The notes under the pieces are model-generated. The model worked only from the letters and a program-made list of their open reading frames with translations, ran no database searches and was not told the origin of the DNA. Source: a virus (lineage: Duplodnaviria > Caudoviricetes). Taken from it: 32,713 nucleotides of DNA. Where the stretch lies: the IMG/VR virus record IMGVR_UViG_3300030372_003259, positions 1 through 32,713 of that record; one strand, 5' to 3'. This document shows positions 15,435 through 28,981 of the stretch, in pieces (position 1 is the first letter of the stretch; the number at the start of each line of letters is the position of its first letter). The translations under genes were made by a program, and so were the position numbers.

Positions 15435-16154
15435 ATGGAAAAACAATTAGACTGTTGGAAGCTAGCCAACGCTGTATTAGGTAAGTCACGTAGAATTTTA
15501 TTATACGGACCACCAGGTACAGGTAAAACATATAGTGCAGTTAAAACAAATGCACCACTAGATATGGACGGAAAACCAAATGTATACCAAGTAACAATGA
15601 CAGAAGATACAGCTTCTGCAAACTTGGAAGGCTTTTATATGCCTAGTGCAGATGGTTCATTTAAATGGAATGACGGTATTGCTATACAATCTTGGCGTAA
15701 TGGCGGTAGATTAGTTATTAACGAAATCGACCACGCTTCACCAGATGCAATGACATTCCTACACGCTATATTGGATGACCAAGATATTGCAATGTTGACG
15801 TTAAACAATGATAATAAGGAAACTGTTAGACCAGCAGAAGGCTTTCAAGTTATTGCTACAACTAATAGTCCGCCAGAATCATTGCCACTTGCATTAAAGG
15901 ATAGATTTCCTGTAAAAATTAATATCGATAAAATACATCCAAAAGCAATGGACAAATTCCCAGCAGAATGGCATACAACAATCCAGGACACTACATTGAT
16001 AGATGACCCGGAAGAACGTATATCTGTTCGTGCTTGGAACGAATTCTTTGAATTACAAAACAAAGGCTTTTCTATAGATGTAGCAGGTAAGCTAATATTT
16101 GCAGACAAAGCAACAGATTTGTTGGACGCTATACACTTAAGCCAGGTCGATTAA
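15435..16154 (+). CDS. MoxR-type AAA+ ATPase (CbbQ/NirQ/NorQ, CobS-like)
   Basis: Walker A GPPGTGKT, variant Walker B LVINEID, sensor ATTN, arginine finger ALKDRF. Confidence 0.92.
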   Translation: MEKQLDCWKLANAVLGKSRRILLYGPPGTGKTYSAVKTNAPLDMDGKPNVYQVTMTEDTASANLEGFYMPSADGSFKWNDGIAIQSWRNGGRLVINEIDHASPDAMTFLHAILDDQDIAMLTLNNDNKETVRPAEGFQVIATTNSPPESLPLALKDRFPVKINIDKIHPKAMDKFPAEWHTTIQDTTLIDDPEERISVRAWNEFFELQNKGFSIDVAGKLIFADKATDLLDAIHLSQVD

Positions 16155-17575
16155 TGCACGGTAATAAAAGATATCCATATCCACAGATAGTTACTGGGGA
16201 TGACTGGACTGTTTACAATACTACATCATTAGATGAAACACCTAAGACAGACAATTTAAATAAACAAATGTATGTTCCTATGGATGCAGAATGTAATAGA
16301 TGCGGTATTGACCACAGTAGAATGATTCGTAGACACGAATTAGGTCACGCAAAATGGTCACCAGCTACCATTGGTAAACTTAAAGGCATACGTAAGGATG
16401 CTATTGAAGCAATGGAAGAAGTACGTATTAACTATTTATTAGGTAAATACAAACTTCCAGTTGATGAACCAGTTATGTGTTTGGATGACATAAAAATACG
16501 CTATATGGATTTGATTTATAATCAAAGTATTGCAGATTTAATGCTGTATACAATTGCTAGTTATTCACATAATCGTGATTACGAATTAAATAAAAACTCA
16601 ACTTTTGAGGCTTTATTAGAATTGTTAAATACAGCACAAGAATATGATGATTTATCACCTATGCGTAAAGCAGAACTTGCTTTTACTCACAATGTTGTAA
16701 GGGATTTAACAGGTGAAATACGCTATTCACGTTCTGGTAGCAATCCAAGTTATCGTAAGGTACAAAAACTAGCTAAACGCTTGACAGATATACTAAATAT
16801 GTTTCAAGACAAACCAGAACCATATCAACCGGAAGCAGATAGTAATTCTATCGGAGGTGAAACCGAAGAAGGTGAAGGTGATGGTAGTGATGAAGCAGAA
16901 CAAATTGCTTATGGCGTTTCCGATTTAGAAAAACGTATGCGTAAAGAATTAATGCAAGAAATGCAATATCGTACAACATCTGGTATAGGTTACTGGGGTT
17001 CAATGGAAATATTGCAACCAGCATTAACAGTAAACTTACAAGGTAGACTCAAAGCTAGTAGAGGATACCAAGCTAAAGATTATGGCTACAATCCTAAATA
17101 CATTAATAGGTTTTGTGTTGACAGAAAAATATTCAAACAAAAGTTGAATGTTAAAGGCGGTACAATACTTATAGACGCATCTGGTTCAATGATGTTTAAT
17201 GGCCAAGATATATTGGAAATTATGGAATTATTGCCAGCTGTAACTATTGCTATGTATAACGGTCACTATAATAAAGGTCACTTACGTGTAATTGCACGTA
17301 ATGGCAAACGTGTATCGGAACAATATTTAAATACACATTCTGGAGGAGGTAACGTTGTTGACGGTCCAGCATTAGAATGGTTGGCTACTATGCCAGCTAG
17401 ACGTATTTGGGTATCCGATATGAAAGTAGTAGGTTCATATCAATCTAGAAATGCAACAGGTTTTAACCTGCTTAAGGAATGCTACGATTTATGTACTAAA
17501 CATCGCATTATTAATTTAAAAGATGTTGAAGAAGTAAAGGAACACGCACTTAAATTAAATAGTGTGTTAAAGTAG
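16154..17575 (+). CDS. HExxH metallopeptidase-like plus vWA domain protein (MoxR partner, CobT-like)
   Basis: RHELGH near the N-terminus, acidic linker, MIDAS motif IDASGSM; coupled to the AAA+ gene. Confidence 0.85.
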   Translation: MHGNKRYPYPQIVTGDDWTVYNTTSLDETPKTDNLNKQMYVPMDAECNRCGIDHSRMIRRHELGHAKWSPATIGKLKGIRKDAIEAMEEVRINYLLGKYKLPVDEPVMCLDDIKIRYMDLIYNQSIADLMLYTIASYSHNRDYELNKNSTFEALLELLNTAQEYDDLSPMRKAELAFTHNVVRDLTGEIRYSRSGSNPSYRKVQKLAKRLTDILNMFQDKPEPYQPEADSNSIGGETEEGEGDGSDEAEQIAYGVSDLEKRMRKELMQEMQYRTTSGIGYWGSMEILQPALTVNLQGRLKASRGYQAKDYGYNPKYINRFCVDRKIFKQKLNVKGGTILIDASGSMMFNGQDILEIMELLPAVTIAMYNGHYNKGHLRVIARNGKRVSEQYLNTHSGGGNVVDGPALEWLATMPARRIWVSDMKVVGSYQSRNATGFNLLKECYDLCTKHRIINLKDVEEVKEHALKLNSVLK

Positions 17576-21156: not shown

Positions 21157-21608
21157 TGATAGAACTAGTAGTTGGTTGTTTGTTTCCGCTTTCACTAACA
21201 ACTAACAACTTACCTGAATACCGTGACTGTCAAGTGGTGGAATATAACATTAATCATGTTATAGACTATACAGACATGGTATCCAGGTACTTTAAAGAGG
21301 AAGACATCTTGCAATCGCTTAACATCATCTATTGTGAAAGCAGCGGCAAAGTAAATGCCGTAGGTAACAATAAAGATGGTACGCAAGATGTTGGACTCTG
21401 GCAATTTAATGATGATACTTGGGCTTGGTTAAAACCTAAATTAAGTATAATAAGTCCAAGGACTAATCCAGAAGTATCTACAGCAGTTGCTTCATGGTTA
21501 GTATACAATGACGGTTGGCATCATTGGAATAGTAGTAAACACTGTTGGAAAGGAATAGATAATGAATTGTTGTGGTATAAAGTTATCCCAAGTATGCGTG
21601 GTAACTGA
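21156..21608 (+). CDS. SLT-family lytic transglycosylase
   Basis: Catalytic CESSG, GLWQF and GWHHW motifs; hydrophobic N-terminus. Confidence 0.88.
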   Translation: MIELVVGCLFPLSLTTNNLPEYRDCQVVEYNINHVIDYTDMVSRYFKEEDILQSLNIIYCESSGKVNAVGNNKDGTQDVGLWQFNDDTWAWLKPKLSIISPRTNPEVSTAVASWLVYNDGWHHWNSSKHCWKGIDNELLWYKVIPSMRGN

Positions 21609-21669
21609 CCAAGTATATTGTGATTACTGTGAAAAAGTATGGGGTCACGTAGATGAGTTTTTAGAATGA
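21562..21669 (+). CDS. Cys-rich micro-protein, 35 aa (MNCCGIKLSQVCVVTDQVYCDYCEK...), not in ORF track
   Basis: GGAAAGGA RBS; ATGA overlap with the next ORF; overlaps the SLT 3' end by 47 nt. Confidence 0.7.
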   Translation: MNCCGIKLSQVCVVTDQVYCDYCEKVWGHVDEFLE

Positions 21670-21845
21670 ACATAGACGATAATTTATATAGTTACAAAGT
21701 AAACAAAAAGTTTATGGAACAAGTAGACAGTATGTACAATTATCAATGTGAAGATTGTAATGATGTATATATGACAAACGTACCGTGGGATGTTAAGTGT
21801 CCCCATTGTATGGACAATTATTATAAAGGACAAGATGATTTATGA
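21666..21845 (+). CDS. Zinc-ribbon protein, 59 aa (YNYQCEDC...CPHC, FmdB-like), not in ORF track
   Basis: ATGA overlaps on both sides; two CxxC motifs. Confidence 0.75.
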   Translation: MNIDDNLYSYKVNKKFMEQVDSMYNYQCEDCNDVYMTNVPWDVKCPHCMDNYYKGQDDL

Positions 21846-22993: not shown

Positions 22994-23220
22994 TATGGAT
23001 TTAACTTTGTTCCAATATTATCACGATTTCTATCTTCCCAAGTTTTAATAGAAGATATTTGTTTATAATTAGGTTTTTGAACTCCTGTTGTTATATAATT
23101 ATCCATTTGTTGTCTAGCAGTCAATTTCATTTTCATTGCTTTTAACTTAGTTCTATATTGTTCAGCACGTAACTTTTTAGGTTTAGGTTTACGTTCAGGA
23201 TTTTGTTTAAGTTTAGGCAT
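22993..23220 (-). CDS. Basic hypothetical protein (75 aa)
   Basis: Lys/Arg-rich; TAATG-coupled. Confidence 0.75.
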   Translation of the reverse strand: MPKLKQNPERKPKPKKLRAEQYRTKLKAMKMKLTARQQMDNYITTGVQKPNYKQISSIKTWEDRNRDNIGTKLNP

Positions 23221-23285
23221 TAATATCTTCTTTTTTTGCCAGGTTTTTTATATGCAGTTTTTTTACCTTTTTTTGATATTGGCAT
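23220..23285 (-). CDS. Basic micro-protein, 21 aa (MPISKKGKKTAYKKPGKKRRY), not in ORF track
   Basis: GGAGG RBS; TAATG overlaps at both ends exactly fill the gap. Confidence 0.8.
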   Translation of the reverse strand: MPISKKGKKTAYKKPGKKRRY

Positions 23286-23569
23286 TATTTACCTCCGATT
23301 TGTTTCTTAGCGTAAGTTTTAACTACTGCTAACGCTGCTCCACCACCAGCTAACGCAGCTAGTTGTAATGTTTCAGCTTCTACACCTACTAAAGGTGCAA
23401 CTGTTAACGCACCTATAAAAGCTTCAATAAATGTCCAAGCTGTACGTTCTAACATATCTTTTAAATCTTCACTCATTTTGTAACTCCATGCTTCGGACCA
23501 AGGTGTCCACGCTACATCCTTCTTGAATGTACCATCTTGGTTACGTTTTCTATTTGATTTAACAAACAT
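23285..23569 (-). CDS. Holin, r1t-like (actinobacteriophage type), with N-terminal extension
   Basis: DMLERTAWTFIEAF motif, two hydrophobic segments, basic C-terminus. Confidence 0.75.
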   Translation of the reverse strand: MFVKSNRKRNQDGTFKKDVAWTPWSEAWSYKMSEDLKDMLERTAWTFIEAFIGALTVAPLVGVEAETLQLAALAGGGAALAVVKTYAKKQIGGK

Positions 23570-25719
23570 TACGCCTCTGGTTTCTTAGGGTAAAGTATAT
23601 CATCAAAAACTTTTTTCGGCAACATTGACAAAACACTTAGTGCAGGATTAGTTTTACTAGTTATATTAAGTACAGTTTTACCTAATTTTGCAGTACCTAC
23701 TAAACCAGCTGCACCTTTACGTATTAAATCTACACCTGTTTCTTTAGCTGAACCAGTAAGTTCACTAGCTAATGTGTTACCAGATTTACCTGGTCCTTGT
23801 GTAAAGTATTTACCACGTTTAGCTTTATCTCTAGCTTCTTTTGCTGCTATTCTTCTTTGATTTTCAGGACTAGTTTGATAATTAAAGTCACCTTTACCAG
23901 AAGTTCTTGTATCAGGACCAGCATTAATATTAATATTTCCTTTGGCTTCTAATTCTTTAAGTAAGTTTGTTCTAAACTCTGCACTTTGTACTTCATAAGC
24001 AAATTGTTTAAGTTTGTAATCATCTCTAATTTGACCAGGTAATACTTTACCTGTTGTAGAAGAACGTGGTAAATTAGCAATACGACTGTCTTTTAATAAT
24101 TTTCTATCTGCTTCTTGTTGCCAGCCAAATCTTGGATTTTCTGGGCCTACTTCTCCTTTTAGTTCTAATATTTTTAATTCATCAGGAGTTGGTCCAGATG
24201 TAATCATACCCATATCTCTAGGCTTAACGTCAAGATTACTAAAGGTAGCACTTTTAATTTTTTTATCTGCTTCATCCATAAAGATACGTTGTTGCTTAAT
24301 AATTCCTTCAACATCACGTTGTTTAATTCTTTCGTTTTCAGCAAGTATTTCAGCAGCTTTAAGGTCTACACTTTTACTTGCACGTTCTAAAGCGTATTCA
24401 ACATTAGACGCTGGTGTGTAAGTAACTTTTGGTTTTCTATCTGTAGTTCTTATACGATTAGGGTCGTTAGCAGCTAAACCTTTATTTTTATCTTCAATAA
24501 GTTTTAATACAGCAGACTCTTTGTCTAGTCCTGGATATTTTAATTGTGCTTCTTTAGCATAATTTTTTATATCTGATTGATAAGGTGCTTCTACTTTACC
24601 ACCAACTCTAGGCATTTCTTTAGTAAGTATTTGGTCTTTAGGTATATTAATCATACCATCAGTTGTTACTACAGGTTTACCCTTTATACGTTGTCCTTGA
24701 CTAGTTGTTTTACTACCTCCAACTGCATAATTACCTGTAAAATCTACACCTTTTGTAACATTTCCTACTGCTTCTTGACCTAATTCTTCTCCTAATTTAC
24801 CTAAAGTTCCTGGTTTACCTTCTATTGTTGTACCTATATTCTTAGTGTCTTCAATGTTAAGCGCTATTTCTTTAGGACTATATCCAGATGTACGTTCTTT
24901 AATTAATTTTTCTAAAGCTTCATCTTCTTGTGCAGGTCCCATTTGTAATTTTGTTTTAGCTATGTCTGCTTCTAAAGCTTTAATCTCTGATTCAAGATAA
25001 GCTTTAGTCATTGACACATCTTCTTTAGGTAGCTTACTTAATAACTCTTGTGATAATGTTTGACCACCTTTTAATTCTGGTAATTTAGATTGAGTAGCAG
25101 ATTTTTGACTAGGTCCTTGTGTTTTTTCTGCAACAGCTCTAGCTTCTACATTTTTTTTAATTTGTGCAGCTTTTCTTTGTAATGTAAAATCAGCCATTCT
25201 AGGTGCTTTAATATCACCATATCTAGAAAGTTGACCTTTTAATACGTCTAGTTGTTCCATTTGTCCAAACAAAACTTTGTCTTGTTGTCCTGCACTAGGT
25301 ACTCTTTCAACTTTAAATTCTTCTGCAATATTTACTTTGTCTAAATTAGCTCTAACACTTTTAATAAATGTTTCTGATAAATTTTTATAACCTTTTTCTT
25401 CTTTTAAATATCTAACTAAATCTTCATCAGTTGATAAATCATTGTATTGATTTCTAATTTTATTATTTTCAGCTTGTGCTTCAATATTAGCTTGTGTATC
25501 TACAGCAGCTTCTTCTAAATATTGTTGGTCTGCTGTTTCATAAAAACCTTCTGGTTGAGGATTATCACTACCTATGTCATCACTTGTTATAAAATCTGAA
25601 GCAGCTTCTTGACCTAATTGTTCTGTTTCTTTAGCAGCATCATCAATATTAAACCCATCTTCTGGGTCAAATTCATCAATATTATTACTAATTTTGTATG
25701 GTTGATTAGGTCTAACCAT
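23569..25719 (-). CDS. Large hypothetical protein (716 aa; acidic N-terminus, basic C-terminus)
   Basis: Long ORF, TAATG-coupled on both sides; no recognised motif. Confidence 0.8.
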   Translation of the reverse strand: MVRPNQPYKISNNIDEFDPEDGFNIDDAAKETEQLGQEAASDFITSDDIGSDNPQPEGFYETADQQYLEEAAVDTQANIEAQAENNKIRNQYNDLSTDEDLVRYLKEEKGYKNLSETFIKSVRANLDKVNIAEEFKVERVPSAGQQDKVLFGQMEQLDVLKGQLSRYGDIKAPRMADFTLQRKAAQIKKNVEARAVAEKTQGPSQKSATQSKLPELKGGQTLSQELLSKLPKEDVSMTKAYLESEIKALEADIAKTKLQMGPAQEDEALEKLIKERTSGYSPKEIALNIEDTKNIGTTIEGKPGTLGKLGEELGQEAVGNVTKGVDFTGNYAVGGSKTTSQGQRIKGKPVVTTDGMINIPKDQILTKEMPRVGGKVEAPYQSDIKNYAKEAQLKYPGLDKESAVLKLIEDKNKGLAANDPNRIRTTDRKPKVTYTPASNVEYALERASKSVDLKAAEILAENERIKQRDVEGIIKQQRIFMDEADKKIKSATFSNLDVKPRDMGMITSGPTPDELKILELKGEVGPENPRFGWQQEADRKLLKDSRIANLPRSSTTGKVLPGQIRDDYKLKQFAYEVQSAEFRTNLLKELEAKGNININAGPDTRTSGKGDFNYQTSPENQRRIAAKEARDKAKRGKYFTQGPGKSGNTLASELTGSAKETGVDLIRKGAAGLVGTAKLGKTVLNITSKTNPALSVLSMLPKKVFDDILYPKKPEA

Positions 25720-26300
25720 TATGTAATCCTTTTTTTGTCAAGTTTAGCAGACAATATTTGGACTTCACCACTAATCTCTTGTAATTTTTCCATTACATCA
25801 GATGTATTTTCTGGTGTATTAGTTACATCACCATCATAATCTATGTATGTAACCTCGACATCTTGTCCAGATTGTATAGCTGCAGCAACACGTGGATATA
25901 CAAACTTATATGCATCAACGCTACTGCCGATGAACCCGTCTTTAGCTATACGATTGTTAGTTTGTGTGTTACCCAGTATTAAACAACCAGCTGTATGCTC
26001 ATCAGTATTACCTGTATGCCATAAGATATACTCAAAACCTGGTACATCTTGTACCCATATCATACCTTTATGAAAATCTGCACTATATTTAGCTAAATAT
26101 CTATTATGAAATCCACCTTCAGTACGTAATTTAAGCTTATAAGTACCTGCAGGTATACGTGTTTCACCCCAAACTTTTACATCACGCTGTTCATCTTCTA
26201 ATGTGTAGGCTAAAAATGTACGTTTACCTCTGTCAATTTCAAATAACAAGCCTGATGTAGAGTCTTTACCACTACTAATTCTTAATACTTCATACTGCAT
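25719..26300 (-). CDS. DUF5675-family protein (candidate endolysin, His/Cys peptidase-like)
   Basis: Motifs YTLED, TRIPAGTY and ILWHTGN..EHTAGCLILG; C-terminal coiled coil. Confidence 0.82.
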   Translation of the reverse strand: MQYEVLRISSGKDSTSGLLFEIDRGKRTFLAYTLEDEQRDVKVWGETRIPAGTYKLKLRTEGGFHNRYLAKYSADFHKGMIWVQDVPGFEYILWHTGNTDEHTAGCLILGNTQTNNRIAKDGFIGSSVDAYKFVYPRVAAAIQSGQDVEVTYIDYDGDVTNTPENTSDVMEKLQEISGEVQILSAKLDKKRIT

Positions 26301-26467
26301 TATTTTTTCTTAGATTTTTTTTTAGCTTTATTTTTTTTGCTATTAGGAAAACCTTTCTTCATATCAGAATAAGCTTTTTTAGATATAGTAGAATTTTTTT
26401 TAGACCTACTTGTACCAGCTTTTTTTCTTTTATTTATATTATGATAAAGACCTTTTTTAGCAGCCAT
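26300..26467 (-). CDS. Very basic protein, 55 aa (MAAKKGLYHNINKRKKAGTSRSKK...), not in ORF track
   Basis: TAATG overlaps at both ends. Confidence 0.8.
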   Translation of the reverse strand: MAAKKGLYHNINKRKKAGTSRSKKNSTISKKAYSDMKKGFPNSKKNKAKKKSKKK

Positions 26468-26658
26468 TATTTACCTACTTTCTTTTGAGCATTTTTATGT
26501 GCTTTACTAAATGTTGTACCACGTTTCATAGAATTAACCATAAATTGTATGTGTTTTTTACTGTGATGTTTACTATGTTTTTTCATACTATCTTGTTGTC
26601 TTTTATTTAATTTAGAAACATCAACACCTTTAATTTTTTTTGTAACCATGTTTACCAT
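26467..26658 (-). CDS. Basic Lys/His-rich protein
   Basis: ORF track; KKHSKHHSKKH segment. Confidence 0.8.
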   Translation of the reverse strand: MVNMVTKKIKGVDVSKLNKRQQDSMKKHSKHHSKKHIQFMVNSMKRGTTFSKAHKNAQKKVGK

Positions 26659-26945
26659 TTAACCTTATGTGACCAATATCTTGCTGACATTTTACTAGGA
26701 TTTCTATCTTGTGCATTATGTCTTGCATAATAAGATTTTTTACGTGCTTTGTCTTTTTTGGTTTTAGGATTTTTACCTGCGCCTTTAACACCTTGTTGAC
26801 CAAACCTAATTAATTTAAGTTCGTGTCCTTCTTGTGCTAATACCATATGCGACTTAGTTGCATGTCCAGGTGTACGCTTAGGTTTGTTTACACCTTTAAG
26901 TCCATGTTTTTTTAATAACGCTTTTTTTCTAGCTTCGTGTGCCAT
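26652..26945 (-). CDS. Basic phage protein (DUF6321/DUF5754-like)
   Basis: KLIRFGQQG...RKKSYYARH...SARYWS motif, recalled from marine phage proteins. Confidence 0.7.
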   Translation of the reverse strand: MAHEARKKALLKKHGLKGVNKPKRTPGHATKSHMVLAQEGHELKLIRFGQQGVKGAGKNPKTKKDKARKKSYYARHNAQDRNPSKMSARYWSHKVKW

Positions 26946-27025
26946 TATTCTTCCTCACAATTTCCGTATTTGCAGTTGCATATTTGTACAAATGAACCGT
27001 CTAGTTTAGTTGTAACTATACACAT
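26945..27025 (-). CDS. Cys-rich micropeptide, 26 aa (MCIVTTKLDGSFVQICNCKYGNCEEE), not in ORF track
   Basis: GGAGGT RBS; TAATG overlaps at both ends. Confidence 0.75.
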   Translation of the reverse strand: MCIVTTKLDGSFVQICNCKYGNCEEE

Positions 27026-27063
27026 TAGTTACCTCCGCAACAACCGTTACCACAACAGTCCAT
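27025..27063 (-). CDS. Cys/Gly micropeptide, 12 aa (MDCCGNGCCGGN), not in ORF track
   Basis: AAGGTGAG RBS; TAATG overlaps at both ends. Confidence 0.65.
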   Translation of the reverse strand: MDCCGNGCCGGN

Positions 27064-27290
27064 TACCTGCTCACCTTGCCTTTATTATCTGGTTTATCTT
27101 TTCTAAATCCTATGGTTAATAACCATACTACTAATGTAATTATAGTAGCTAATCCTGTTATTTGTTGTGCAGAACCTGTCAATGTTAATGTAGCTATAAT
27201 TAAACCAACAAGAGTCCATGACAAATTAAGTGTTTCTTTGATTATTTCTATTAACCAATTCCATACTTTTTTAATTGCTTTTTTTATCAT
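27063..27290 (-). CDS. Small two-TM membrane protein (75 aa)
   Basis: Two hydrophobic stretches; ATGA-coupled to the acidic protein gene. Confidence 0.8.
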   Translation of the reverse strand: MIKKAIKKVWNWLIEIIKETLNLSWTLVGLIIATLTLTGSAQQITGLATIITLVVWLLTIGFRKDKPDNKGKVSR

Positions 27291-28981
27291 ATAGTTTTCC
27301 TAAATATAAATGAAGCCATAGTAGCTATTCTAGTCAAAATAACTGGGACTACAACTTCTTGAGCTTTTTCCTTTTGGTCACTAGTCATGTCATCCCCAAT
27401 ACTTGTAAGGTTTATATCTTGTATATTTACATCTACAAAAACTTCTATAGGATTTTCTATAAATGCTTCGTATTGTATCTCTGTAACAACGTCAGCTAGG
27501 GTATAATCTTCTACGTCTGCATTTTCTACAGCTCTTTCCACGTATTCTTCTACAGCTTCTGCTACTACAGTATCTGATTTAACAGCCTCTGCAATAATTT
27601 CAACATCTTCAGTTTCAACTGATAATACCTCAGCAACAACCTCAATTTGTTCCTCTGTAAGTTCTTCAACATTTTCAATTGCCTCCTCAACAACAGCTTG
27701 TACTATTTCCTGTACTTCTTCAGTAGCTTTATCTAAATTTTGTACACCAACATCATTAACTTCTTCAAGAACTTCTACAACTTCTTCGGTGGTAGCTTCT
27801 TCAACGACAATATCCTCAACGATTTCTTCAACTTCAGATACTGCGACAACGACTTCTTCCTCAGAAAGTTCTTCTGCAGGTTCCTCCTCAACATCTTCCT
27901 GTATTGGCTCATCCAAAACTTCCTCGATAACTTCTTCATCTTCCACCACAACAACAACATCATCTTCTAAAACCTCTTCCTCAATAACAATTATAATATC
28001 TTCTGGTATATCTAGCTCTATAACTTCTTCTTCTATTTCTATAATTTCAATAGTATCTTCAAGTTCTTGTATAATATCTACAAATTCCTCTAATTCCTCT
28101 TCAGATAAATTTTCAAGGTCAATAGTGCTATCCTCAAGCTCTTCTAATATAAGTAATTCTTCTTCAGCATCTATCTGTTCCTGAATTAAACGCTCTTCTT
28201 CAGCAGCAATCTCTGCTTCAATAGCAGCTATTTCTTCTTCCGTGAGCTCAATAACTTCCTCTTCAATGAGAATATCTTCCTCTGTAAGGGTGTCATCTCC
28301 AAGTATCTCTTCGTCCAACTCATCATCTATCTCTTCTTCGACAATATCAATAACATCATCAGGTATGTCAGTGCAATCACCGGGCTGATATCCAAACCAA
28401 TCTCCACTTTCTACGGCTTCCAAATATTGTTTATACGATAAAGGGTTACCTGGGTGTTCACAACCATTTTCGTCCCATGCCAAATACGTTGTAATATTAT
28501 CTTCAACGACATCTTCTGCTTTGGGTAAGGTTGTGCTAGTTGTTGTCGTACTAGGTGGCGTTGTATCAGGAACATAATCATAATTATATAATACACTTTC
28601 TACAGGTGTAAAGTCGCTAGTTGTACCATTAGTATCGTGAAATGCTTTTACCTTTGCATATATCTTTTGATTATTTACAGACAACTCGTTGTATAAATAC
28701 TCTGCTGTAAATGTATAACTCTGCCAAGACAGTGCTTCTGTAAAACCAAAGTCTGTTTGTTCTGATATATCATCAGCAGTTTCAGTAAGTCCAATATAAA
28801 CTATGTAGTATTCAGGTGGATTATCTTCAAAGCCGTCACTCTCTTGCCAACTTACTGTAATGCTACCATCATTGTTTAATGTATTAGTTATACCATAAGG
28901 TGTTTGTGTTTCAGTATGATACGCATATACAGGAGTAGCTATTAGTAATACTGCAGCTACAACAGCTAATAACTTTTTCAC
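27287..28981 (-). CDS. Exported, highly acidic protein (signal peptide, Fn3-like beta domain, Thr linker, Glu/Val/Ile-rich stalk)
   Basis: N-terminus MKKLLAVVAAVLLIATPVYA (GTG start), TTPPSTTTTSTT linker, ~300 aa Glu-rich region, hydrophobic/basic C-terminus. Confidence 0.8.
   Translation of the reverse strand: MKKLLAVVAAVLLIATPVYAYHTETQTPYGITNTLNNDGSITVSWQESDGFEDNPPEYYIVYIGLTETADDISEQTDFGFTEALSWQSYTFTAEYLYNELSVNNQKIYAKVKAFHDTNGTTSDFTPVESVLYNYDYVPDTTPPSTTTTSTTLPKAEDVVEDNITTYLAWDENGCEHPGNPLSYKQYLEAVESGDWFGYQPGDCTDIPDDVIDIVEEEIDDELDEEILGDDTLTEEDILIEEEVIELTEEEIAAIEAEIAAEEERLIQEQIDAEEELLILEELEDSTIDLENLSEEELEEFVDIIQELEDTIEIIEIEEEVIELDIPEDIIIVIEEEVLEDDVVVVVEDEEVIEEVLDEPIQEDVEEEPAEELSEEEVVVAVSEVEEIVEDIVVEEATTEEVVEVLEEVNDVGVQNLDKATEEVQEIVQAVVEEAIENVEELTEEQIEVVAEVLSVETEDVEIIAEAVKSDTVVAEAVEEYVERAVENADVEDYTLADVVTEIQYEAFIENPIEVFVDVNIQDINLTSIGDDMTSDQKEKAQEVVVPVILTRIATMASFIFRKTI

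Follow-up and report, generated by a model that had tools for sequence, protein, structure and literature searches.

The window, that is, the whole stretch of 32,713 nucleotides analysed here, is a viral record (32.7 kb, 33% GC, 78% complete) in which a gap of 119 bp on the minus strand is filled by two very short genes, A and B. TAATG overlaps at 27063, 27025 and 26945 connect the two with one another and with the genes on either side (Table 1). The 75-aa gene that precedes A returned no match in Pfam and PHROG searches, and the 97-aa gene that follows B is widespread in other marine phages and is not tied to A or B. In addition to the holin-like protein and the putative endolysin, the late region holds small membrane proteins and a very acidic 564-aa protein (27287-28981, minus strand) with an N-terminal hydrophobic signal and a conserved hydrophobic C-terminus; the latter and the 75-aa gene constitute a module common to podo- and sipho-type genomes. 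Tiny Lys/Arg-rich late ORFs are found at 23220-23285, 26300-26467 and 26467-26658 (minus strand). The non-structural arm encodes a 35-aa peptide with CC, C and CxxC (21562-21669, plus strand), followed by a 59-aa zinc-ribbon-like ORF (21666-21845, plus strand). Elsewhere on the plus strand (15435-17575), a gene for a MoxR-like AAA ATPase precedes one for a 473-aa partner, likely a VWA protein, that has a DxSxS motif.

Table 1. Genes and translation signals at and around the A/B locus, in window coordinates.
Feature	Coordinates	Strand	Remarks
Gene A, 12 aa, MDCCGNGCCGGN	27025..27063	-	ATG at 27063, TAA ending at 27025; family M[DE]CCGxGCCGG[KRNSE]
Gene B, 26 aa, MCIVTTKLDGSFVQICNCKYGNCEEE	26945..27025	-	ATG at 27025, TAA ending at 26945; predicted beta-hairpin, Cys2 to Cys16
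Shine-Dalgarno-like AGGTGA of gene A	27071..27076	-	Within the tail of the 75-aa gene; -10.4 kcal/mol
Shine-Dalgarno-like GGAGGT of gene B	27031..27036	-	Made by the Gly10-Gly11 codons of A; -10.9 kcal/mol
Weaker GAGG element for the 97-aa gene	26953..26956	-	Inside gene B; -5.6 kcal/mol
75-aa hydrophobic gene, likely two-helix membrane protein	27063..27290	-	Upstream of A; commonest upstream neighbour of A
97-aa Lys-rich protein, phrog_7595 (unknown function)	26652..26945	-	Downstream of B
DUF5675 protein, putative endolysin	25719..26300	-	Pfam E 1.4e-22
Holin-like protein	23285..23569	-	phrog_443, E 2.8e-6

The exact tiling of the gap is, taken alone, weak evidence for two genes, since 9,425 of 300,000 shuffles (3.1%) with both outer TAATG overlaps held fixed also tile it with coupled frames, and since the TAATG overlap is the usual junction in this genome (at least 11 other junctions among those listed). 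The initial annotation had called such tiling unlikely by chance, which overstates its weight. The strong evidence is instead the Cys content and the conservation in relatives. Together, A and B have Cys at 8 of 38 residues, as compared with 24 of 5,949 (0.4%) across 15 late ORFs (binomial P ~3e-12), and we conclude that both are almost certainly real genes. The view that they are coupled micro-genes of the late membrane/lysis region is borne out by their frames, their Shine-Dalgarno (SD) elements and their conservation. Contigs from two metatranscriptomes of one study cover the A+B region (26594-27300 and 26699-27256) with a single synonymous change, at 27028; such contigs show neither strand nor level, DNA carry-over is possible, and they lend weak support to expression. 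A scan for promoters and terminators gave results at or below chance (33 against 42 and 3 against 3.7 expected by chance, respectively).

The family to which gene A belongs occurs in an estimated ~300 viral stretches, and the pattern MDCCGxGCCG matched an estimated ~280. The counts given for A are among the matches listed, from overlapping scans that include redundant assemblies, and are not counts of species. When length was left free in the search, exactly 12 residues were found in 116 of the 120 matches examined, and among the metagenome matches, for which the position of the stop was free, 112/117 are 12 aa long and 116/117 lie next to a gene matching the same phage modules. When the search fixed nothing but M[DE]CC-x3-CC and the stop, Gly5 and Gly7 were present in 114/120; of the six without both, five look like chance matches and one is a member with Gly5 replaced by Arg. 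When the Cys residues were left free (118 of 119 loci read), four Cys were found in 115/118, the exceptions being two genes with a changed Cys8 and one chance match. The loss of frames and Cys residues in relatives, which the initial annotation had named as grounds for abandoning the idea, is thus the opposite of what is seen. Synonymous codons vary at every conserved position (matches selected for Asp/Glu), and pN/pS is 0.16 (0.119/0.745) across 101 distinct 12-codon genes and 0.142/0.746 in 18 genes from loci chosen by their neighbours, both sets having been selected on the start of the motif.

An allelic form, A', with the pattern M(G)(G)DCCxxCNCGG (57/61 matches), has altered spacing and keeps the four Cys. 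It also retains the terminal Gly pair and the Asp before CC (the Asp being fixed by the search pattern), and it uses the slots of A behind the same kinds of upstream genes; A was not found at any of these 61 loci. Selenocysteine versions of A and B were considered and rejected, as TGA is found at a Cys position in 0/452 A, 0/74 A' and 0/169 B matches; these loci include redundant ones, and patterns of Cys codons were used to retrieve most of the A loci; the fairer Cys-free search likewise gave none. The motif MDCCG retrieved nothing relevant from the full-text literature, and the A motifs are absent from the readable supplements of PMC12856327. Because GMSC calls ORFs from 30 nt, according to the accessible part of its description (PMC11364881), A may sit unannotated in small-gene resources. 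Both A and B are apparently undescribed so far.

The B family comprises 73 distinct cores with 3-5 Cys each. The search pattern included Cys2 and Cys16; Cys18 is found in 61/73 cores and replaced in 12, Gly10 in 67/73 and Gly21 in 69/73. That just two Cys are fixed would suit a disulfide as well as a metal site. In loci chosen by their neighbours, pN/pS is 0.26 for B (17 cores) and 0.15 for the 75-aa membrane gene. An AlphaFold2 model of a 39-aa member contains strands at residues 2-6 and 12-16 followed by a disordered tail, with a mean pLDDT of 90 over residues 1-10 and 83 over residues 11-20. From the register of the strands, Cys2 and Cys16 are predicted to face each other and close the hairpin. 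Searches of PDB sequences, Foldseek and the ESM Atlas returned no usable match to B, and no Pfam family was found at E<=1; phrog_26807 matches weakly (E 0.004). The B profile has 40 matches at E<=0.001 among 1.84 billion representatives, 38 of which are 29-50 aa long, and the cluster members looked up are unnamed or hypothetical proteins. Two longer representatives were rejected as fused forms, one being an unrelated repeat and the other a single-contig fusion with the 97-aa gene. The statement that such genes are invisible to gene callers holds for the 26-aa B of the window, which is absent from a collection of 15 billion proteins, and does not hold for its longer homologues, which are catalogued.

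Pairing with the ribosome was calculated with an anti-SD string equal to the 16S ends of two putative host-order genomes. The elements of A and B are the strongest among 16 starts tested, with one other start tying at -10.9; the ribosome-binding element claimed for each TAATG is therefore strong at A and B and weaker at the 97-aa gene. Across 132 contexts, an SD-like word precedes gene A in 110, with a purine-rich peak at -11 to -7. Gene A overlaps the upstream stop in 40/120 matches and is coupled to the next gene by TAATG in 80/129 contexts, the other 49 having no such junction. Codons 9-12 of A contain GGAGG in 28/80 and GGTGG in 38/80 of the coupled contexts, and the conservation of Gly10-Gly11 is partly explained by these codons serving as the SD of the next gene.

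At some loci (L081, L132, L241 and relatives), a B without an ATG is placed in the +1 frame relative to A. Each of the 19 distinct A genes so arranged has a GTG at the Cys9/Gly10 junction, and 16 of the 19 have Gly6, with codons that form a stronger SD for that GTG (-8.7 vs -5.1 and -5.7 kcal/mol). The internal GTG and its SD are suggestive of selection that keeps B translated, the lineages concerned being related. Entry into the ATG-less B by read-through or a programmed +1 frameshift out of A or the 75-aa gene is less likely, as the GTG with its SD accounts for those loci. Elsewhere, B and the end of the 75-aa gene overlap. RNA structure around A is not conserved (mean z -0.52, 7/60 below -2, commonest pair in 8/60 contexts), and with no Rfam match near the gathering score and no conserved fold, an RNA element was rejected.

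Gene A is found in genomes of both podovirus and siphovirus type, and in the late operon of all genomes mapped. In eight carrier genomes, whose gene roles were assigned by eye, the terminases range from 71% identity with that of the window down to undetectable. In podovirus-like genomes, A follows membrane genes of the lysis module; in a siphovirus-like genome, it lies between a gene for an Arg-rich peptide and a putative major tail gene. Small membrane genes predominate among the 111 distinct upstream contexts, of which 8 are tail-terminator-like and 7 Arg-rich. Such mobility, between tail, membrane and lysis neighbours and between podo- and sipho-type genomes, argues against a single structural partner. 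A peptide with a run of Arg is directly coupled to A in siphovirus-like genomes (L494:13387-13464:-), an arrangement that resembles a protamine whose basic and Cys portions have been separated and that might allow packaging together with DNA. A or A' is present in 11/23 genomes chosen by the 75-aa gene and in 7/12 of the near-complete ones, and A is thus an accessory gene. The 97-aa gene was rejected as a synteny anchor, as 71 of 80 loci chosen by it contain none of the Cys families.

When loci were chosen only by the 75-aa gene, 77 of 80 contained at least one Cys micro-gene, and these belong to several unrelated families (A in 25, A' in 9, B in 63, D in 10, F in 20, none in 3; some rows negative for A are contigs that end early). 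A and B are separable and mobile members of a larger set of interchangeable Cys micro-genes, a feature that the initial annotation had missed. Family D consists of four-Cys peptides of 24-27 aa (MICGLCSGSCxTCP; a 24-mer in the 10 loci above) behind the 75-aa gene (L214:2710-2781:+ and L701-L720), which fill the A+B slot without A or B in 20/20 D loci. The tail that D shares with some B was rejected as homology between them; it looks like the overlapping 5' end of the DUF5675 gene that follows. Family F is a HiPIP-like four-Cys protein of 50-55 aa in the same module of related phages (L248:1546-1695:+, L208:3276-3434:+ and 13 more). It matches Pfam HIPIP below the cut-off (E 0.004-0.1), its four PDB sequence matches at E<=1 are all of HiPIP type (three named HiPIP plus PioC), and its structure model, which is poor (pLDDT 56), matched nothing in Foldseek. 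It would be unusual for a phage to encode a minimal HiPIP. Family E consists of acidic 25-36 aa peptides ending DDCGD[AS]CKI (L088:2039-2146:+, L095:2294-2398:+), an end that we take to resemble the redox C-terminal tail of class I ribonucleotide reductase; such peptides could act in trans. Six-Cys peptides of 21-25 aa, family C (MCKCNYLCCGCKLHC...), are often coupled right behind A (L104:2039-2101:+, L161:339-410:+), and further Cys micro-ORFs, MTAIRRSIQICTVVCCG and MSKEKCCESCSCGAGEE, occur in L257, L273 and L134.

Neither D nor F was found in 548 A-bearing loci, many of which are short or redundant, and in whole records a strong F match is present in 4/12 genomes without A and 0/29 with A. 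In a trait tree of 70 of the 80 loci (10 with short flanks were left out), A and D/F never moved in the same direction, with only 3-4 independent pairs (sign-test p 0.25-0.5), and after correction for relatedness the tendency of F or D to exclude A falls short of significance. A whole layer of thiol micro-peptides is hidden in the late operons of an abundant group of marine phages.

Several observations bear on the host. The best annotated matches of the window terminase are Streptomyces phages (25-27% identity). WhiB, an actinobacterial marker used for such phages according to the accessible part of PMC7771536, is present in 3 of 35 related viral records that carry micro-genes, the window itself lying outside that search. 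The A pattern has two matches in 185,579 cellular genomes, one a GC-rich chance match and the other on a phage-like contig in an Actinomycetota MAG. That contig (L403, 54 kb) has a phage-like late region close to that of the window. The order of this MAG comprises 65 genomes of 0.6-1.1 Mb, and the CCGxGCC pattern is absent from the other 64; gene A was not found on any of the host chromosomes searched. Actinobacterial FmdB-type zinc-ribbon proteins end in a Gly/Cys tail similar to A, and this lead gave no match in the 64 other putative host-order genomes. Given the genome sizes, the marine origin and WhiB, the hosts are probably Actinomarinales, by a link to the window phage that is indirect. 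None of five putative host-order genomes has MshC, GshB, EgtD or CysK/M over the cut-off (Pfam ATP-grasp matches fall far below that of GshB), and a copper P1B ATPase is over the cut-off in 4/5. Judged on these five genomes, the putative host appears to be a streamlined bacterium without the usual small thiol buffers.

No signal peptide, leader or export signal was found in A or B, and the claim that no modifying enzyme lies nearby is confirmed for the window proteins scanned with Pfam, PHROGs and NCBIfam in this 78% complete record. The peptides would thus most simply be cytoplasmic and reduced. A, A', D and F all place four Cys within a small frame that is Gly-rich or compact, with no fixed virion type or neighbour; this constancy, and the use of unrelated Cys sequences in one slot and role, favours generic thiol chemistry over a dedicated partner. 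Because the putative host appears to lack these thiol enzymes and mostly keeps a copper ATPase, Cu(I)/Zn(II) chelation is put first. Our leading interpretation, held with somewhat less than even confidence, is that A and B act in the cytoplasm as Cu(I)/Zn(II)-thiolate peptides whose chemistry resembles that of metallothioneins without their belonging to that family; metal binding is, we infer, their likeliest role. Behind it we rank redox buffering, followed by iron-sulfur binding and an extracellular disulfide-stapled role, these two together, and then a cysteine-sensing relay.

In the metal-thiolate model, the peptides would be made late in infection, likely stay cytoplasmic and unmodified, and likely bind soft metal ions such as Cu(I) and Zn(II) through their Cys residues, buffering metal and thiol chemistry during virion assembly and lysis. 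A, presumably too short to fold, would enclose one or two ions or assemble into small oligomers bridged by metal. Since a single ion is rarely chelated by adjacent Cys pairs, the 12-mer would need oligomers or bridging. In B, the hairpin is predicted to unite Cys2 and Cys16, with Cys18 and a Cys of the tail as further ligands. The benefit may be that Cys- or Zn-dependent phage proteins, such as the putative DUF5675 endolysin, are shielded from copper or oxidation, which would matter in a host with a poor thiol pool. More tentatively, and as an idea more probably wrong than right, we propose that in the smallest actinobacteria of the ocean the lost glutathione or mycothiol of the host is replaced by phage products, namely a thiol buffer of phytochelatin size made on ribosomes and an interchangeable four-Cys kit. 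If so, A would represent, with only 39 bases, a previously unseen type of viral auxiliary gene, and the peptides freed at lysis would constitute a viral source of copper-binding ligands in seawater. As copper or redox buffers, A and B would extend auxiliary metabolic genes to peptides sized like small-molecule chelators. A gene of 12 codons under strong selection in unrelated phage morphotypes lies below the reach of most annotation, and both peptides are short enough to be synthesised, such that their chemistry is testable without culturing the host.

The same peptides might instead, without serving as metal ligands, act as sacrificial redox buffers that cycle between thiol and disulfide and take the place of glutathione or mycothiol as a product of the ribosome. 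We consider this unlikely. The lack of MshC, GshB and EgtD in the five host-order genomes and the acidic peptide E at related loci would suit it, and a sunlit-surface context of reactive oxygen species is argued in the accessible part of 10.64898/2026.04.03.716425. However, spacing, length and Gly residues are held more tightly than a simple supply of thiols needs, and a Cys-based buffer would be costly in a host without CysK. Improbable in our estimate is that A, along with D and F, is a minimal iron-sulfur peptide that carries or scavenges clusters late in infection. Each of the three has four Cys, and both the HiPIP-type matches of F and its strong occurrence only among genomes without A point that way. 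CC-x3-CC and CC-x2-CxC are not ferredoxin spacings, however, and A and B have no canonical Cys spacing; the only profile match belongs to the separate F, below the cut-off, the F model is of low confidence with no structural match, and the A/F exclusion is not phylogenetically significant. A role outside the cytoplasm, in which A and B are disulfide-stapled in the virion or at the envelope during lysis with B as a stapled hairpin, is comparably improbable. The predicted strands of B would let a Cys2-Cys16 disulfide close the hairpin, and lysis-module membrane genes make up most of the genes found upstream of A. The disulfide reading in the initial annotation therefore fits the geometry of B, but it clashes with the absence of a signal or leader sequence; moreover, A also lies between tail genes in siphoviruses, across unrelated virion types, and B has no fold or PDB match.

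Quite doubtful, and ranked below these, is the possibility that A is a cysteine-sensing translational relay in which stalling on the paired Cys codons gates the coupled late gene. In mycobacterial polycysteine short ORFs, two consecutive Cys codons sufficed, according to the accessible part of 10.1101/834739; the probable host is an actinobacterium without CysK, A is TAATG-coupled to the next gene in most contexts, and Cys number survives the changed spacing of A'. The RNA around A has no conserved structure, however, A is internal to operons with its own SD and is not a leaderless first ORF, the downstream genes are mutually unrelated with no sulfur-metabolism gene recognised, and 49 of the 129 contexts are not coupled by TAATG. 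Features other than Cys (Gly5, Gly7 and length) are also conserved, and the fold of B is left unexplained. That the two frames are neutral filler or a DNA/RNA element, with translation incidental, is very improbable. It could draw on the 3.1% of shuffles that tile the gap and on samples that were selected by pattern and include redundant assemblies. Against it stand pN/pS values of 0.16 and 0.26 for A and B alongside 0.15 in the neighbouring membrane gene, third positions that vary freely, a stop at codon 13 in 116/120 and 112/117 matches that was not selected for, and the lack of an Rfam match near the gathering score; this reading is already contradicted by the codon pattern.

The A and B families, conserved as proteins in hundreds of marine phage sequences, can be compared with several known systems. 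The matches of B, phrog_26807 (weak) and catalogue proteins, are of unknown function or unnamed. Cys-based RiPPs, namely ranthi-, sacti- and lanthipeptides, have a short Cys-rich ORF in common with A and B, which differ in having no leader, modifying enzyme or fixed neighbour; window scans and the eight carrier neighbour maps inspected by eye revealed neither an adjacent modifying enzyme nor a leader, and a host enzyme might still modify A and B in trans. The mycobacterial polycysteine leaderless sORFs, as described in the accessible part of 10.1101/834739, resemble A in being very short, in having consecutive Cys codons (two CC pairs in A) and in the probable actinobacterial cell. A differs from them in that it is operon-internal and not a leaderless first ORF, has no conserved hairpin or other mRNA structure masking a downstream ribosome-binding site, precedes no recognised sulfur genes and is conserved at the level of the peptide.

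Phytochelatins, glutathione and mycothiol are enzyme-made thiols, whereas A is gene-encoded and viral. The size and thiol count of A are near those of the four-unit form of phytochelatin, and by this analogy it would be a plausible Cu/Cd chelator or redox buffer. Metallothioneins, among them fungal Cu-MT and bacterial SmtA/MymT, have roughly 25-80 residues and 7 or more Cys. Like A and B, they are small, Cys- and Gly-rich and contain CC and CxC motifs. A has a metallothionein-like composition (4/12 Cys, no aromatic residue), and B has 4/26 Cys together with Phe and Tyr; with 4 Cys in A and 3-5 in the B cores, neither reaches the at least 7 Cys in one chain of a multi-metal cluster. Unlike metallothioneins, A has 12 residues and four Cys and lies in a phage late operon with no metal-responsive regulator seen. 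A' begins like plant type-2 metallothionein, the N-terminus of which is MSCCGGN in a family of ~80 aa and 14 Cys (accessible part of PMC5192482). The likeness of A and B to metallothioneins is of low complexity and may be convergent, and the literature titles and abstract openings listed contained nothing relevant on phage metallothionein-like genes. A and B thus fall outside the metallothioneins because they have too few Cys, and in the metal-thiolate reading they would work like miniature metallothioneins or phytochelatins.
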